Assembly: GCA_050250935.1 (NCBI GenBank)
Contig: JBFWNS010000001.1
Coordinates: 256,001 to 320,000 of the forward strand
Direction of reading: 5' to 3'
DNA from: Candidatus Margulisiibacteriota bacterium
GTDB lineage: Bacteria > Margulisbacteria > Marinamargulisbacteria > JBFWNS01
DNA: 64,000 nucleotides
Shown: one piece after another, positions 4,557-45,622 of the stretch
Position numbering within the stretch: the stretch's first letter is position 1
How the letters are laid out: each line of letters begins with the position of its first letter
Notes under the pieces: generated by a model
The model's database searches: none
What the model saw: the letters and a program-made list of their open reading frames with translations, nothing else
What the model was told of the DNA's origin: nothing
Position numbers and translations under genes: made by a program

Positions 4557-6162
4557 CGAGTCCCTCCAAGACTGCTTGGACCGACTGGGGTCCCCTTTGT
4601 TTGTCGAGCTGTTCAACCGGAGCATAGGCCAAAAATTGAAGGTCGTCGATGAGGCTCGCCCATTTAACCAAGAGGTCTTCTGGCACCTGATAGTGTTGCA
4701 AAAGGGCCACCTGTTCGGCTTTTTTAAGGCCCACACACGAAACCCCGATTTTATGACCAAGATAGGTTTGAAGGATCCCTTCAAGGACATGGGCCTGTTC
4801 TTTACTGGGCAGAGATTTCGCCGCTTCCAGCGCTTGTTTGGCTGTCCCAAGAGCACCATCCCGCAGACGCTGTGCTTCGGATTTTTGAAACCGTTTCAAC
4901 CCAAATTGATGAAGCCCCATACCCAATAAAAGGGCTGCATTGAGGCCGATTAATCCCAACGCCCAAGGCCAAGAGGAGGGTGCTTTCGACAGAGGTTTTG
5001 GAGCAGGCAGGTTTTCTGAAATGGGTTTTAAGGCCATGACTTTGTCTTGTTTGCGAACCTCTCCTTCCACGGTTAAGTGTGGTGTTTCGAGGGTTTGATA
5101 GGTTTTTTTTGTAGGGGAATAGGTCGAAACTGAAAGGATTGGCAGACTCAGTTGCCCCGACCGTTTGGGCACTAAGGTGTAGATAAAGGTTTTTTGAGAT
5201 GGGTTTTGGGTCTCTGTTTTGGCCAAATAAACGGCCATGTCGTTTGAAGGGGCAATCACCAAGTTTGCAACGGTATCCAGATTGCCGGTTCCCGATAGCG
5301 TTACGGTTAGCCGACCCGGCTGTGAGGGACGAATCCGAGTTTTTCCCACCGTAGCAGACAAGGTAAAATCGCCAATCGCTCCCGAAAAATCAGCGGGGCG
5401 GCCCTGGATTGGCAAGCCGATTACACGAACGGTTACAGGATTTGATCTCAAGGTGACCGGGCCTTGAGCCACATCAAACACCACCTTAATTTGGGCCGGA
5501 GGTAAGGTTAGGGTTCCTGCAGTGATGGGGATGATTTGCTTGTTGATGACTTCGGCGCCATAAAACTTCTGATTCTGAACCACTTTTTTGAGCACACGCT
5601 GAGAGGTCGCCTGGCTTTTGGCGACGACCCCAGTAAACGCAGGATCGATTAAAATGACATCGCCCTCCACAGCCCCACGTCGATAAAACACAACCCGATA
5701 CGGAATGGGCTGACCCACCATCACCTGTTGGACACCGACCTCGGCTTCTAGAAATCCTTGTTTGCCGGTTGCCGTCGGCGTTTGCTTGGAAACGGACACC
5801 ACAATGGGTTTGGTTTGAAAAGTTTTTCCTTGATAACTGAGGCGAACCGGGGGAATCGAAAGTTTGCCAGACTTCAGCGGCACCAAGACCATCTCGATGG
5901 ATTTGACGCTGGTCATTTTGCCATTGACCAATGAAAAGGAGGTCGACTCTGCCGTTGAAAGGACTTTGAAATTCCCTTTCAGATTGGGAACAGGGGGGCT
6001 TGGTACAGCGGAGGCCTCTTTTCCGACAATTTGAATTTCTAAAACCACCCGATTTTGGGCATCCAAAGCAGTGCCAATTCGAGCCGATACCCGCAATTCT
6101 TCTGCACAAAGCGAGACAGACAAGCCGAGCGCTAAAATTGCCAACAGTGTTTTTTTTATCAC
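4543..6162 (-). CDS. BatD family protein
   Basis: Signal peptide, STSFSLVNG, PADFSGAIGDF, Ig-like repeats, late TM helix; bat operon context. Confidence 0.85.
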   Translation of the reverse strand: MIKKTLLAILALGLSVSLCAEELRVSARIGTALDAQNRVVLEIQIVGKEASAVPSPPVPNLKGNFKVLSTAESTSFSLVNGKMTSVKSIEMVLVPLKSGKLSIPPVRLSYQGKTFQTKPIVVSVSKQTPTATGKQGFLEAEVGVQQVMVGQPIPYRVVFYRRGAVEGDVILIDPAFTGVVAKSQATSQRVLKKVVQNQKFYGAEVINKQIIPITAGTLTLPPAQIKVVFDVAQGPVTLRSNPVTVRVIGLPIQGRPADFSGAIGDFTLSATVGKTRIRPSQPGRLTVTLSGTGNLDTVANLVIAPSNDMAVYLAKTETQNPSQKTFIYTLVPKRSGQLSLPILSVSTYSPTKKTYQTLETPHLTVEGEVRKQDKVMALKPISENLPAPKPLSKAPSSWPWALGLIGLNAALLLGMGLHQFGLKRFQKSEAQRLRDGALGTAKQALEAAKSLPSKEQAHVLEGILQTYLGHKIGVSCVGLKKAEQVALLQHYQVPEDLLVKWASLIDDLQFLAYAPVEQLDKQRGPQSVQAVLEGLDAVL

Positions 6163-6752
6163 CAGTCCTGATCTCCTTGTTTGGAGGGTTTTGGGATTTG
6201 ATTAAAGCGATTTCGGCTTTCTCTTTCGTGATCACGCAAGGTATTTAGGGTTAATTTTGCCCGATTTTCATTGGGTTTGGGGGGCGTTGGGTCGGGTGGA
6301 GGTGGGGATTTTGGTGAACGGCGCTTTTCCACCAAAACGGCTTCCAAATTATACTTGGCATCTTCGTCGTTGGGGTTTCGTTTTAAGGATTCGCGATAGG
6401 CTGCAATGGCTTTTTCAAGATCCTGTTTTTGATGATACACGTTTCCCAAATTGTAGTAGATTTTGGCTTGTTTACTGGGAGGAAGTTTTTGGATGGCTTT
6501 TAGGTAGGCTTCTTCTGATTTTTGCCAGTCCTTTTGGGCATAATAGCTGCTGCCCATGTTGGCCCAGGCTTCGCCTGCATCGCTGGTTTTAATGGCTTTT
6601 TCAAGGTGAATTTGTGCCGCTTTGGGATCGCCTTTTTTAAGGGCCCTTACACCCAAGTTGTTGTGCCAGGCCGCCGTTAAAGACTCGGCCTGGAGCGAAC
6701 CAGCAAAAAGGGTCATCACCATCCAAATCCCAACAACCACCTTACTCGTCAT
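6159..6752 (-). CDS. TPR protein (BatC-like)
   Basis: TPR motifs (YYNLGNVY, AYRESLKRNPNDEDAKYNLE), Pro-rich tail ending ...DQDW. Confidence 0.85.
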   Translation of the reverse strand: MTSKVVVGIWMVMTLFAGSLQAESLTAAWHNNLGVRALKKGDPKAAQIHLEKAIKTSDAGEAWANMGSSYYAQKDWQKSEEAYLKAIQKLPPSKQAKIYYNLGNVYHQKQDLEKAIAAYRESLKRNPNDEDAKYNLEAVLVEKRRSPKSPPPPDPTPPKPNENRAKLTLNTLRDHERESRNRFNQIPKPSKQGDQDW

Positions 6753-7749
6753 GAGACCGGACCTCGGGCAATGCCCATTCCACTAGCAAAAGGACCAACA
6801 CCAGGCCTAGAAGCCACTGATACCGATCTTCGTGTTGTTTGCGAAGCCAATGGCTGCCAAACGTGGTTTCGTGAACCACCATCATGGCCCGATACAGTTT
6901 GTTATAGACATGCTGATTTTGGCCAGTGAACAAAGCCGTCCCGCCGGTTTCGGCTGCAATGGCTTTTAACTGGGCCTCGTTCAGCTTGGACACCACCACA
7001 CGGTTGTCGCCATCTTTTTTGAGGGCAATAACCCCATCGTCCTGAGGCAGGGGAATGGGTTGGCCTTGGGGCGTCCCAACCCCAACGGTAAAGACGGTAA
7101 TCCCGGCTCGTTTTGCTTTTTTGGCTGCGGCTTGGGCATCGCCGCTTAGGGCTTCTCCATCGGTAAAAATGACCAGGATTTTTTCCGCAGCTCCCGGTTT
7201 TTGAAAGCCTGTGATGGCGGTTTCGATGGCCGAGGCCACATTGGTGCCATATTCTGGAACTGTCCCCACTTGGACCGAATCCACAAACATCGACACGGCT
7301 TCTTTTTCCGCGGTTAGAGGGCACTGAACCCAAGCGTTTCCAGCAAAGACAATCAAACCCAACCGATCGGCCTGGGCCAATTGAATCAGCCCCTGAATTT
7401 CGGATTTGGCAAAGTCAAAACGGGTGGGCAAACTATCTGGGGTTAACATGCTTAACGAGGTATCCAAGGCAATGACAATGTCCCGGCCTTTTTGCCCCAC
7501 TTGCTCGGATTTGGTCCCAAATTGAGGCCGAAGCACCACACCCACCAGACCGGCCAAAACCAGAACCCAGAGAACCCGTTTCCAAAACCGGCGGGTGGGG
7601 CTATTGCCCACCAACAACAGGGCCCAGGCCGAGCTATTCGCCAAAATCTGAAGATTTCGTTTGCGTCTAAGCGCCCCGATGGCTAGGATTGCCAGCACAA
7701 GGGGAACCACAATAAAAAGCGGCCATAAAAATCCATTTCCAAAAATCAT
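6742..7749 (-). CDS. VWA-domain protein (BatB-like)
   Basis: MIDAS DTSLSM, LRPQFG, CPLT, TDGE, VVSKLNEAQL. Confidence 0.9.
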   Translation of the reverse strand: MIFGNGFLWPLFIVVPLVLAILAIGALRRKRNLQILANSSAWALLLVGNSPTRRFWKRVLWVLVLAGLVGVVLRPQFGTKSEQVGQKGRDIVIALDTSLSMLTPDSLPTRFDFAKSEIQGLIQLAQADRLGLIVFAGNAWVQCPLTAEKEAVSMFVDSVQVGTVPEYGTNVASAIETAITGFQKPGAAEKILVIFTDGEALSGDAQAAAKKAKRAGITVFTVGVGTPQGQPIPLPQDDGVIALKKDGDNRVVVSKLNEAQLKAIAAETGGTALFTGQNQHVYNKLYRAMMVVHETTFGSHWLRKQHEDRYQWLLGLVLVLLLVEWALPEVRSHDE

Positions 7750-41554: not shown

Positions 41555-41580
41555 GTGGGGATTAGAGTATACCCTCCTAC

Positions 41581-41810
41581 GGGGGGGAAGACTAGGGGGG
41601 AACCACGCTGCGCGAGGTGCCCCCCTAGAACCCCCCACCTATGCTTTTCGCTCAAAACTCACCCACGCAGCCTTCGGCTGGATGGGGTTTCGGACATTTC
41701 GCTAATAAGGTTCCCCACCCCCTTCCCCCTCCCGATTGGAGGGGGAACGCAAACGCTGAAGACTAACGCTTAGCGCGGTTTGGGATTGCTTCGCTTCGCT
41801 GGCAATCGAT
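41581..41810. repeat. Cluster of GC-rich REP-like palindromes
   Basis: CTAGGGGGG/CCCCCCTAG (41592-41628), CAGCC-TTC-GGCTG, TTCCCCCTCC/GGAGGGGGAA (41723-41747), GATTGC-TTCGCTTCGCTG-GCAATC (41784-41807). Confidence 0.75.
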
Positions 41811-41884
41811 TTATAATCCATTTTTTTAGGCCACTTATCTTTGGAACGGAGTAACCGTTTCTCTGGAAAAAGCTGGAACAGGGC

Positions 41885-42024
41885 CGCGCAGCGGGAGGAA
41901 GATTGAACTTGCTTCAATGTTCCGACCCACAAATGCAGTGCATTTGTGATTATAAATTATCGCGCAGCGGGAGCAGTGTTGAATTTACTTCGACGCTGCG
42001 GCCCACAAACGCTTCGCGTTTGTG
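41885..42024. repeat. Two tandem 64-nt structured repeats
   Basis: Copies at 41885-41948 and 41961-42024, 48/64 identical, same three hairpins with compensatory changes. Confidence 0.9.
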
Positions 42025-42037
42025 TATTTAATCGGCA

Positions 42038-42070
42038 GTACCAAAATTACGCCTTGCGTAATTTTGGTAC
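42038..42070 (-). terminator. Perfect 15-bp hairpin overlapping the tRNA-Leu 3' end
   Basis: GTACCAAAATTACGC-CTT-GCGTAATTTTGGTAC. No U-tract, so the terminator role is uncertain. Confidence 0.45.
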
Positions 42071-42151
42071 CGAGGGCCGGAATCGAACCGGCATGAGATT
42101 GCTCTCACTGGTGTTTGAGACCAGCGCGTCTACCAGTTCCGCCACCTCGGC
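42065..42151 (-). tRNA. tRNA-Leu(CAA), 87 nt, CCA encoded
   Basis: GCCGAGGTGGCGGAACTGGTAGACGCG-CTGGT CT CAA AC ACCAG-long variable arm-GCCGGTTCGATTCCGGC CCTCGGTACCA. Confidence 0.97.
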
Positions 42152-42180
42152 AAAGGGATTCGAAAGAATCTGGTTGGGAC

Positions 42181-42208: not shown

Positions 42209-42303
42209 CTTGAAGATGTATAAAGGACGCCGTTTGCTTGACTCGGTTTGTTCTATTTTGGTACCCTTGGTAGCTGCTGTATCGTTTGATCCAACCAAAC
42301 AAG

Positions 42304-42328
42304 AAAGTGGGTCCGCCCACTTTTTTTT
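42304..42328 (+). promoter_or_regulatory. rimP-leader-type attenuator hairpin upstream of nusA
   Basis: AAAGTGGG-TCCG-CCCACTTT followed by a T-run; matches the GTGGG/CCCAC motif known upstream of rimP-nusA-infB. Confidence 0.75.
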
Positions 42329-42373: not shown

Positions 42374-43663
42374 ATGATTTTAATCGAAAATTTTAACCAA
42401 GTTACTGCTCAGATTGAGTCCGAACGTGGGATTTCCAAAGACATTCTTATTTCTGCCATCGAACAAGCGCTAGTGTCTGCTGTTCGTAAAAAGTTTTCAG
42501 AAGAAGCCCTGCTGGAAGGTCACATTAACAGCGATTCTGGCGAGGTTAAAATCTATTTGCGCAAAACCGTCGTTAAAAAAGTGGCTGATGCGGATTTGGA
42601 AATTCTTCTTAAAGAAGCCCAGGCTTTGGATCCTGCAGCCAAGGTTGATGGCACTGTTTTAATCGAAATTGCTTATCCCGAATTTGGTCGCATTGCTGCC
42701 CAAACCGCCAAACAAGTGATTATTCAACGCATTCGCGAAGCCGAGAAAAACGCCATTTTTGATGAATTTATCAGCAAAGAAGGGCAAATGATTACCGGCA
42801 CCGTTCAGCGCATCGAAAATTTGAACTATCTAATTAATTTGGGCCGCGCCGAAGCAATTCTATACGCCAAGGAACAGATTCCTGGCGAACGGTTTTCACT
42901 TAAAGAAAAAATCCGCGTCTTTTTATCCAACATCGACCGCACCGTTCGCGGCCCTGTTTTGAATATTTCTCGGGCCCATCCCGGCATGTTGAAATGTTTG
43001 TTTGAAGCTGAAGTTCCTGAAATTCAGGATGGCATCATCGAAATCATGAGCGTAGCCCGGGAAGCTGGAAAACGGTCTAAAATTGCCGTTAAAAGCAACA
43101 ACCCTTCGATTGGTGCTGTTGGCACTTGTGTGGGCCATATGGGCGCCCGTATTCAAGCGGTTACCAAAGAGCTTGGCGCCGAAAAAATTGATATTTTGGA
43201 ATGGAACGAAAATCCCAAGGTTTTCATTGGCAATGCTTTGAAACCTTCTAAAATTACTGAAGTCATTATCACCGACGAAGCGGCCAAAACAGCCATTGTG
43301 GTGGTCCCCAACGACCAATTGTCTTTGGCCATCGGCAAAAGCGGGATCAATGTTCGGCTTTCTGTTCGGCTAACCGGTTGGAAATTGGACATCTTCAGCG
43401 AAGACGAATACAGCAAAAAAGAAGTTGAATTACGCCAAAAAAGCCATTTGTCCATTGTTGAAAAAATTCAATTGGACAAAGAAAAAGAACGCCAAAGCCA
43501 AAGCGATAGTGCAAGCGAAAAAATCAAGGTTTCTGATCTTGCCAAAGAACTCGGAATCAAGTCTAAGGAACTGGTGGAAAAGGCTGCCGAATTGGGCATT
43601 GCCGTTAAAGGGGCAACCAGTTCGCTAAACCAAGACCAAGCCACCCAATTAAGGAATGCCTAA
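42374..43663 (+). CDS. nusA: Transcription factor NusA with a C-terminal IF2_N-like extension
   Basis: FGRIAAQTAKQVIIQRIREAE, S1/KH domains, QLSLAIGKSGINVRL, LTGWKLDI. Confidence 0.97.
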   Translation: MILIENFNQVTAQIESERGISKDILISAIEQALVSAVRKKFSEEALLEGHINSDSGEVKIYLRKTVVKKVADADLEILLKEAQALDPAAKVDGTVLIEIAYPEFGRIAAQTAKQVIIQRIREAEKNAIFDEFISKEGQMITGTVQRIENLNYLINLGRAEAILYAKEQIPGERFSLKEKIRVFLSNIDRTVRGPVLNISRAHPGMLKCLFEAEVPEIQDGIIEIMSVAREAGKRSKIAVKSNNPSIGAVGTCVGHMGARIQAVTKELGAEKIDILEWNENPKVFIGNALKPSKITEVIITDEAAKTAIVVVPNDQLSLAIGKSGINVRLSVRLTGWKLDIFSEDEYSKKEVELRQKSHLSIVEKIQLDKEKERQSQSDSASEKIKVSDLAKELGIKSKELVEKAAELGIAVKGATSSLNQDQATQLRNA

Positions 43664-45622
43664 GTGAAAGTACAAGACCTCGCCAACCAACTTAAAATCA
43701 CCACCAAAGATCTGCTTCGGTTCATGTCCGAAATCGACGTGAAAGCCAAGTCCGGTTCCACCAAACTGGAAAACGACACGGTGACCTTGGTGCGAGATCT
43801 GTACAACGAAGCCAACAAAAGCACCCCTGTTTCCGAAGATCCGGCCCAGTGGCGCAACGTGACCATCAGCGAACAGCAAATTTCTTTGCAAGACCTGGCC
43901 AAAAAAATCGAGGTTAAGCTTTCCGAAATCATGAAGGCGGTGTTGAATCGCGGGCAATTGTTGAACTTAAACTCCATTATCAGCGCCGAATTGGCCATCG
44001 AATTGGCTGGCGAACTGGGTGTGGCACTGGAAGTTGAAGGCATCGAAAAATCGGGCTCTGACATCAAGGCCATGCTCAACAAAATCGAAGAGCAAGAAAT
44101 TGACGAAGACTTAAAATCCTTGGTGGAACGGCCTCCCGTTATTACCATTATGGGTCACGTTGACCACGGTAAAACCATGTTGCTGGATACCATTCGCAAA
44201 ACCAACGTGGTGGCCAAAGAATCCGGTGGGATTACCCAGCACATTGGCGCCTATCAGGTTAAAGTTCGGGATCGTCTTTTAACCTTTTTGGATACCCCTG
44301 GCCACGAAGCCTTTACCGCATTGCGTGCCCGAGGCGCTCAAGTAACAGACATTGCCATTTTGGTGGTTGCTGCCGACGAAGGCATTAAACCCCAAACCAT
44401 TGAAGCCATTCACCATGCCCAAGCTGCTGGTGTCCCCATTTTGGTGGCCATCAACAAAATGGATAAGCCTGGGGCCAATCCGGACACCGTTAAACAACAG
44501 TTGGCCGAGCACAACCTGATGGCTGAAGAATGGGGTGGAAAAACCATCATGGTGCCAGTGTCGGCAAAAGCAGCCCAAGGTATCGAGGATTTGTTGGACA
44601 TGATTGTGCTGACTGCTGACATGCTCGAGCTTAAAGCCAACCCCAAAGCCCTGGCCAAGGGGATTGTTATTGAATCCCGTTTATCCCGCAAAAAAGGGCC
44701 GGTTGCCACCGTTTTGGTTAAAACTGGAACCCTACGCATTGGCGACAATTTCGTCATTGGAACCACCATGGGGAAAGTTCGCGCCTTGCTCAACGACCTT
44801 GGCGATTCGGTTACTGAAGTTGGCCCCGGCACCCCTGCCGAAATTTTGGGGATCTCTGAAGTACCAAGACCCGGCGATATGCTGGAAGTTATGGCCACGG
44901 AAAAAGAGTGCCGCGAGATTGTTGAAACCCGCATCAATGCCGAAAAAGCCGCAAAATCGGTTCAACAACCATTGACGCTACAAGCGTTGTCTCAGCAAAT
45001 CGAAAAAGGTCATGTTAAAGCCTTGAACGTGATTGTTAAGGCCGACGTTAACGGCTCTTTGGATGCCATCGTGGCATCGATTGGCCAAATTCAAACCCAC
45101 GATATTTCGATTCATGTCATTCACTCTGCCACAGGTCCCATCAACGAAAACGACGTGATGTTGGCCATGGCCTCGTCTGCCATTGTGATGGCCTTCCATG
45201 TTGGCATCTCTGGCGAAGCCCAAAAACTGGCTGAAGACGAAGGGGTTGAATTCAAAACCTATCAGATTATTTATGAACTGGTCGACGACATTCAAAAGGT
45301 TGCCGATGGGATGTTCGAACCTGAATTCGAGGAAGTTGAAACCGCACGAATTGATGTTCGCCAAATGTTTAAATTTTCTAAAGTGGGCTCGATTGCGGGG
45401 TGTTATGTTCAGTCTGGCAAGATTTTTCGGAACCATCAGGTCCGCGTTTTCCGCGGAAAAGAAGCCGTTTACACCGGCAAAATCGACTCGCTCAAGCGGT
45501 TCAAAGAAGATGTTCGCGAAGTGGCCACTGGCTTTGAATGCGGCATTGTTTTGGATAAATTTGACCCTGCCATTGGAGACGTTATTGTCGGGTTCGAATT
45601 GAAAGAGAAAAAGCGGATCTAG
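43664..45622 (+). CDS. infB: Translation initiation factor IF-2
   Basis: RPPVITIMGHVDHGKT, DTPGHEAF, NKMD, SLKRFKEDV, GFECGI; AAGGA SD 8 nt before GTG. Confidence 0.98.
   Translation: MKVQDLANQLKITTKDLLRFMSEIDVKAKSGSTKLENDTVTLVRDLYNEANKSTPVSEDPAQWRNVTISEQQISLQDLAKKIEVKLSEIMKAVLNRGQLLNLNSIISAELAIELAGELGVALEVEGIEKSGSDIKAMLNKIEEQEIDEDLKSLVERPPVITIMGHVDHGKTMLLDTIRKTNVVAKESGGITQHIGAYQVKVRDRLLTFLDTPGHEAFTALRARGAQVTDIAILVVAADEGIKPQTIEAIHHAQAAGVPILVAINKMDKPGANPDTVKQQLAEHNLMAEEWGGKTIMVPVSAKAAQGIEDLLDMIVLTADMLELKANPKALAKGIVIESRLSRKKGPVATVLVKTGTLRIGDNFVIGTTMGKVRALLNDLGDSVTEVGPGTPAEILGISEVPRPGDMLEVMATEKECREIVETRINAEKAAKSVQQPLTLQALSQQIEKGHVKALNVIVKADVNGSLDAIVASIGQIQTHDISIHVIHSATGPINENDVMLAMASSAIVMAFHVGISGEAQKLAEDEGVEFKTYQIIYELVDDIQKVADGMFEPEFEEVETARIDVRQMFKFSKVGSIAGCYVQSGKIFRNHQVRVFRGKEAVYTGKIDSLKRFKEDVREVATGFECGIVLDKFDPAIGDVIVGFELKEKKRI

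Follow-up and report, generated by a model that had tools for sequence, protein, structure and literature searches.

An IF2 N1-type domain at the C-terminus of NusA recurs in Margulisbacteria and two further bacterial groups

Results

A NusA protein that ends in an IF2 N-terminal domain

The NusA encoded in a 64,000-nucleotide stretch of a Candidatus Margulisiibacteriota genome (the window) carries at its C-terminus an N1-type domain, as known from translation initiation factor IF2. This tail is neither an artefact nor a one-off. The NusA form it defines is a real, recurrent variant and apparently undescribed, since a search of the literature on Margulisbacteria NusA and on NusA-IF2 domain fusions, with most subscription papers outside its reach, returned no description. 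Precomputed Pfam annotations already carry the NusA and IF2_N domain pair. The features of the locus are collected in Table 1.

Table 1. Features of the nusA-infB locus, in window coordinates.
Feature	Position	Strand	Basis
nusA, 429 aa, NTD-S1-KH1-KH2 plus linker and IF2_N tail, without AR repeats	42374..43663	+	TIGR01953, 385.8 bits
NusA linker, residues 345-381	43406..43516	+	predicted structure
IF2_N domain, N1 type, on NusA, residues 382-427	43517..43654	+	profile and model matches
SD-like TAAGGA within the last nusA codons, 8 bases 5' of the infB start	43650..43655	+	sequence; putative role
nusA/infB junction, TAA stop then GTG start, in frame	43661..43666	+	sequence; arrangement not conserved
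infB (IF2, 652 aa)	43664..45622	+	TIGR00487, 744.3 bits
IF2 N1 sub-domain, likely donor type of the NusA tail	43664..43807	+	profile matches
IF2 N2 sub-domain	43877..44023	+	profile matches

Like other bacterial NusA proteins (TIGR01953), the window protein has an intact core and is encoded ahead of infB and rbfA; its family score lies above the cut-off of 253.4 bits. In Pfam, NusA_N and KH_5 matched above their cut-offs and S1 and KH_NusA_C slightly under theirs. The difference lies in the C-terminus, which is an IF2_N domain instead of the acidic AR1-AR2 repeats of E. coli, while NusA proteins of Desulfobulbales (see below) combine an AR-like domain with the tail. A Pfam search of the window NusA for the AR/HHH family at E 0.1 found no match, and AR1/AR2 repeats of the E. 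coli type were not recognized.

The assembly of this region was compared with other contigs. One from a second study (X3) covers the junction in one piece with 20 differing letters and no gaps, and none of the 10 differences listed (of the 20 in total) falls within the six junction bases, in a comparison of assembled contigs rather than raw reads. An identical contig (X1, 0 differences), which may be the source itself, also spans the junction unbroken.

Directly 5' of nusA the window holds a terminator-like hairpin (42301-42326, plus strand; GTGGG...CCCAC followed by a T run). A terminator-like pattern was present within 200 bases upstream of nusA in 65/108 loci and in 0/108 control stretches inside nusA. 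We take the hairpin, which has no Rfam match, to resemble a rimP-leader attenuator that was retained though rimP is gone. RimP was recognized in 1/132 genomes of the phylum (a weak partial match), and the phylum seems to lack this widespread 30S maturation factor or to have a very divergent one. Further upstream, GC-rich palindromes and short repeated motifs (41570-42160) lie ahead of a minus-strand tRNA-Leu gene (anticodon CAA, 42068-42151).

The tail is of the N1 type in sequence and predicted fold

The sequence-only reading had identified the end of NusA as an IF2_N domain, and profile searches bore this out: the tail reached 48.7 bits with Pfam IF2_N (PF04760; cut-off 25.3), more than the 33.3 bits that IF2 N1, scored alone, obtained with this model. 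A hidden Markov model (HMM) built from IF2 N1 sequences only gave the window tail 50.7 bits, whereas the N2 model gave 11.3 bits and did not identify the tail as N2-type. None of 550 shuffled tails reached 15 bits on the N1 model, the best scoring 7.3. The tail profile also matched residues 2-48 of Thermus thermophilus IF2 (E 1.5e-8). Three IF2_N matches were found in the genome, namely the NusA tail, IF2 N1 and IF2 N2; IF2 retains its own N1, and here it keeps both its IF2_N copies. Tail and IF2 residues 1-45 are 33% identical (15/45 residues; 47% over 132 nucleotides), so the duplication is not a fresh one. The tail region (43496-43660) also weakly matched NCBIfam NF052588, a model of mycobacterial RNase E, at its N-terminus (E 1.4e-4), a hint that IF2_N may be a mobile module on other RNA-handling proteins.

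Structure prediction agreed with the profile matches. AlphaFold placed the tail as a separate domain beyond a low-confidence linker, in which low-confidence helices were predicted at residues 358-360 and 374-381. Modelled alone, the tail reached a pLDDT of 85.6, with helices at 8-15, 19-28 and 42-50 and short strands. This model superposed on the solved N domain of T. thermophilus IF2 (PDB 4b3x; TM 0.85, rmsd 0.9 A, E 0.02) as its best structural match, and it also matched the N2 domain of Pseudomonas aeruginosa bound to 30S (7uiu; TM 0.81, E 0.38); with a query as short as 51 residues, no match reached E 0.001. The next-nearest folds after IF2 were DNA-binding domains, among them those of pSK1 Par, RacA, BldC and Xis (TM 0.53-0.73, E >0.1). 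An ESM Atlas search returned no usable feature match, and its structure matches were driven by the KH domains only. The tail therefore shares the sequence profile and predicted fold of IF2 N1 (PF04760; the N/G1 domain of 4b3x), but it forms the C-terminal end of a transcription factor; in addition, tails from Margulisbacteria cluster apart from N1, and many carry an N2-like lysine.

About half of the NusA proteins in the phylum carry the tail

The architecture survey that the earlier reading had called for was carried out on 110 nusA loci including the window, taken from 108 of 120 matched genomes plus two less complete genomes; G042, G048 and G050 (fragments) and nine more of the 120 were left out, and one locus that ends at a contig end (L028) was counted as tail-less. 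An N1-type tail (at least 15 bits on the N1-only model) was found in 54/110 NusA proteins of the phylum, and the architecture also occurred in two further bacterial groups. The other 56 scored below 15 bits, three of them at 12-14 bits with a decayed appearance. All tails scored higher as N1 than as N2. In the window's own class the tail was present in 21/43 proteins, and 13 of the best-scoring 29 class relatives were above the Pfam IF2_N cut-off. The domain lies at or near the NusA C-terminus, behind a linker of 12-186 aa in the relatives (median 39). Homologues came from sources named Candidatus Marinamargulisbacteria, Riflemargulisbacteria and Margulisiibacteriota, and two labelled as an Actinobacteria bin and a Clostridiales bin were taken to be mislabelled. 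No cultured strain with a tail-bearing NusA was among the matches. In four families (f42, f43, f45 and f47; L034-L053 and L079-L098) the NusA NTD is shortened by about 30 aa and its profile matches are split.

The same architecture in other lineages

Within a non-exhaustive survey, the NusA plus IF2_N architecture is rare but recurrent. As background, the tail occurred in 1/80 loci of one set and 1/80 (73 complete) of a second, both times in a locus closely related to the query. When profile matches were taken without filtering, KH2 followed by IF2_N was found in 32/150 representatives, of which 19 look genuine and 13 look like frameshifted read-ins. The nearest neighbours of all 19, within a small labelled set, were Margulisbacteria or the Armatimonadota type.

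A profile of KH2 plus tail also found NusA proteins of about 490 aa with IF2_N, most with an HHH_5 domain too, from sources named Desulfobulbaceae or Deltaproteobacteria. In the order Desulfobulbales, the tail was present in 11 of the best 30 loci from 201 genomes, and in the 10 loci with both domains it is 58-74% identical to the N1 of the same genome. Nine of these 10 loci have a ylxR-like reading frame between nusA and infB, and one locus (L114) reads rimP-nusA(tail)-ylxR-infB, with rimP judged from sequence. The Desulfobulbales NusAs with a tail fall into one clade that lies within tail-less relatives, and their tails join the N1 domains of Desulfobulbales (SH-aLRT 95).

A third set comprises 18 proteins with the domain, three of them named Armatimonadota, with decayed versions in close kin. 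Here one locus (L224) has the order rimP-nusA(tail)-infB; its IF2 (4806-6899) has a single IF2_N match (residues 8-52) followed by an acidic linker, and N2 is apparently absent. In the NusA tree the three tail-bearing sets are separate, well-supported clades. Among the database proteins, the NusAs P0204, P0205, P0208 and P0212 show, following KH2, a short Cys/His motif (C-x7-C-x9-C-x4-H) that may be a zinc finger, and P0249 (571 aa) has four IF2_N-like matches and lacks a NusA core match.

Selection, origin and loss

Over 12 non-overlapping pairs (11 for N1), several of them near synonymous saturation, the tail had a pN/pS ratio of 0.14, the NusA core 0.10, the linker 0.33 and IF2 N1 0.24. The tail value is close to that of the core, indicating purifying selection that preserves it as a protein domain. 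On the tree of the NusA core the tail state changes at least 17 times; the tail was often lost and is hence dispensable. With outgroups added, tails occur on both sides of the deepest split of the phylum, and they cluster by class, separate from the N1 domains.

Recent or repeated copying within Margulisbacteria was rejected, as a tail is no nearer to its own N1 than to the N1 of relatives (24/52). Constraining 51 Margulisbacteria tails to one group improved the log-likelihood by 18 units over the unconstrained search (p-AU 0.77), which allows a single origin but does not prove it. In our reading there was one early gain in the phylum and many losses. Across lineages, the data point to repeated duplication, and one shared origin of all tails was statistically not rejected: the AU test for a common origin of Margulisbacteria and Desulfobulbales tails gave p 0.37 over 49 columns. 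The independence of these origins rests consequently on the identities and on the NusA tree.

It had been suggested that a deletion or a duplication moved the IF2_N module onto NusA. The comparisons support duplication from infB as the source, with IF2 keeping N1 and N2, while a deletion of ylxR is not needed to explain the tail. Presence of the tail did not track a short IF2 N-terminal region (medians 160 versus 168.5 aa; independent pairs p 1, at low power).

The in-frame junction is incidental

In the window, the nusA stop (43661-43663) and the infB start (GTG at 43664) share one frame with no intergenic bases, just as the sequence-only reading had described. It had also stated that ylxR and the L7Ae gene are missing, and indeed neither YlxR nor L7Ae, nor RimP, was found in this genome (96% complete). 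YlxR was found in 0/132 genomes of the phylum, tail present or not, and the longest gap between nusA and infB is 159 bases; that the two genes adjoin directly therefore characterizes the phylum and does not signal a tail. Since ylxR is missing with or without a tail, and Desulfobulbales hold tail and ylxR together, its deletion need not be invoked.

The two genes are in frame in 33/108 loci, which is the chance level, and this holds for 16/53 loci with and 17/55 without a tail; at low power, no association between tail and frame was detected. With start codons picked automatically, a 4-base out-of-frame overlap is the most frequent junction (18/108), and direct abutment occurs in 10/108 loci, the window included. 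We conclude that the in-frame junction is incidental. The SD-like TAAGGA would fit ordinary translational coupling.

Programmed readthrough of the TAA, yielding a NusA-IF2 fusion protein, had been raised as a rare event. The abutting in-frame stop and start in the window and nine other loci of the 108 would permit it. Yet in-frame junctions are no commoner than chance and bear no relation to the tail, out-of-frame junctions are the commonest kind, no intact fused reading frame was seen in 110 loci, the stop is TAA, and infB has its own SD-like site inside nusA; we regard readthrough as highly improbable. Apparent NusA-IF2 fusions in G115, G119 and G120 (open frames of 1107-1110 aa) were discarded, each holding an in-frame stop (TAA seen for L040). 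Database proteins running from nusA into infB (P0147, P0206 and the 13 probable read-ins noted above) mostly contain Arg-rich out-of-frame stretches; they were judged by eye to be frameshift artefacts and excluded.

Discussion

A possible tether to the small ribosomal subunit

We tentatively propose that the tail binds RNA at the shoulder of the 30S and would thereby tether transcribing RNA polymerase to an arriving or trailing small subunit, a role to which we give somewhat less than even odds. Helix h16 lies near the mRNA entry of the 30S subunit. In the proposed course of events, nusA would have gained at its 3' end an in-frame copy of the 5' end of infB, the gene beside it, probably a single time early in Margulisbacteria and anew in Desulfobulbales and in an Armatimonadota-type lineage. 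NusA would sit on polymerase through its NTD with its KH domains at the mRNA entry of the ribosome, so that a domain hanging from KH2 would come close to the 30S shoulder. There the tail would contact h16 as IF2 N2 does and lend weak, dispensable help to coupling or 30S recruitment.

Several published observations bear on this. IF2 N2 is reported to bind h16 through Ser277, Val278, Lys279 and Arg259, and the T. thermophilus N domain, which is N1-like in sequence, to interact with 30S (PMC9192638). According to a review, the IF2 N-terminal region anchors IF2 to 30S rather non-specifically (PMC4611024). In Mycoplasma pneumoniae, NusA is described as bridging polymerase and 30S, with the KH domains near S3, S4 and S5, where mRNA enters, and a C-terminal extension that crosslinks to 30S proteins (bioRxiv 10.1101/2020.02.28.970111). 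This extension is likewise a lineage-specific NusA tail that could contact 30S, but it is rich in proline and, by prediction, disordered, whereas the window tail is predicted to be folded and IF2-derived, and its 30S contact is only proposed.

We counted the fold, the purifying selection and the recurrence in three NusA clades in favour of the tether. The position equivalent to Lys279 supplies one post-hoc clue that favours RNA binding: it is a single position, chosen after the published contacts, in kin that are not independent. It is K or R in tails of the own class (18/21), Desulfobulbales (10/11) and family f42 (7/10), compared with 2/21, 3/10 and 0/10 in N1 of the same genomes. The basic residue is present in the window tail and in 25/54 tails of the phylum, and absent from those of f43 (0/14), f30-31 (0/6), three other rows (0/3) and the Armatimonadota type (0/18).

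The tether proposal is weakened by this absence from several groups and by the net acidic tails of f30-31 (-1.7); groups of tails need not share one role. It is further weakened because the tail is N1-like and not N2-like, while the copy shown on 30S is N2 (PMC9192638), and because in E. coli the N1-containing Domain I of IF2-alpha is reported to associate with NusA, at a site predicted at KH2/AR1, and not noticeably with ribosomes (PMC12297416). The many tail-less proteins, the frequent state changes and the failure to track IF2 N-terminal length also count against it.

Alternative roles of the tail

The E. coli complex (Metelev and Johansson, 2025, PMC12297416) suggests another role. It involves the same modules, N1 and the NusA C-terminal region, but there they meet in trans and AR is needed, whereas in the window N1 is covalently part of NusA, AR is absent and IF2 keeps its N1. 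The tail might dock back on its own KH2 region, the site at which N1 of E. coli IF2 attaches in trans, either as a built-in IF2 mimic or competitor or as an autoinhibitory cap replacing AR2. The reported crosslinks of E. coli N1 to NusA (PMC12297416) are in line with such docking, as are the N1 type of all tails, their placement after KH2 behind linkers as short as 12 aa, and the AR-like HHH_5 domain kept beside the tail in Desulfobulbales. Against it, deletion of AR1-AR2 is reported to abolish the E. coli interaction (PMC12297416) and the window NusA has no AR; other linkers reach 186 aa, and a copy in cis would be expected to block rather than help IF2 recruitment. Taken as a whole, docking in cis appears rather unlikely to us, though it is the main competitor of the tether.

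That the tail is a fourth nucleic-acid-binding domain, for nascent RNA, antitermination rRNA or DNA and with no special link to the ribosome, we consider unlikely: the nearest folds after IF2 are DNA-binding domains and two groups have mildly basic tails (+2.7, +1.6), but those fold matches are weaker than the IF2 matches and some tails are acidic. Finally, the tail could be a near-neutral by-product of gene adjacency, kept as a harmless or stabilizing folded C-terminus. Frequent loss or decay would agree with this, as would the position of infB next to nusA or one gene away in all three lineages, which makes duplication easy. Such a by-product should not, however, show a pN/pS near that of the core and below that of IF2 N1, tails more alike than N1 domains within a class (similarities of 0.47 against 0.38, 0.59 against 0.55 and 0.66 against 0.57), or persistence across the deepest split of the phylum, and we regard it as improbable.

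The 30S tether can be stated more boldly: at least three lineages would independently have grafted IF2 N1 onto NusA and retuned it into a 30S anchor, a hard-wired link between transcription and translation. This version is possible but doubtful. If true, it would be a natural domain-fusion counterpart of the E. coli IF2-NusA interaction and a third route of polymerase-ribosome coupling.

Implications for IF2 N1

In published work nusA-infB has been treated as a gene neighbourhood (PMC9514032). A preprint reports that the length of the IF2 N-terminus is weakly and negatively correlated with that of the NusA C-terminus (10.64898/2026.02.08.704698); its accessible text does not mention IF2_N on NusA, and its supplements may list such NusAs. 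The function of IF2 N1 was obscure before 2025, when its interaction with NusA was described; the authors ask whether this interaction is general, as neither terminus is conserved (PMC12297416). The presence of N1 on NusA across much of Margulisbacteria, where it is under purifying selection, and in two further lineages supports, on evolutionary grounds, a functional link of N1 with NusA beyond E. coli, and the tails provide small natural constructs for asking whether N1 binds 30S, NusA or RNA.
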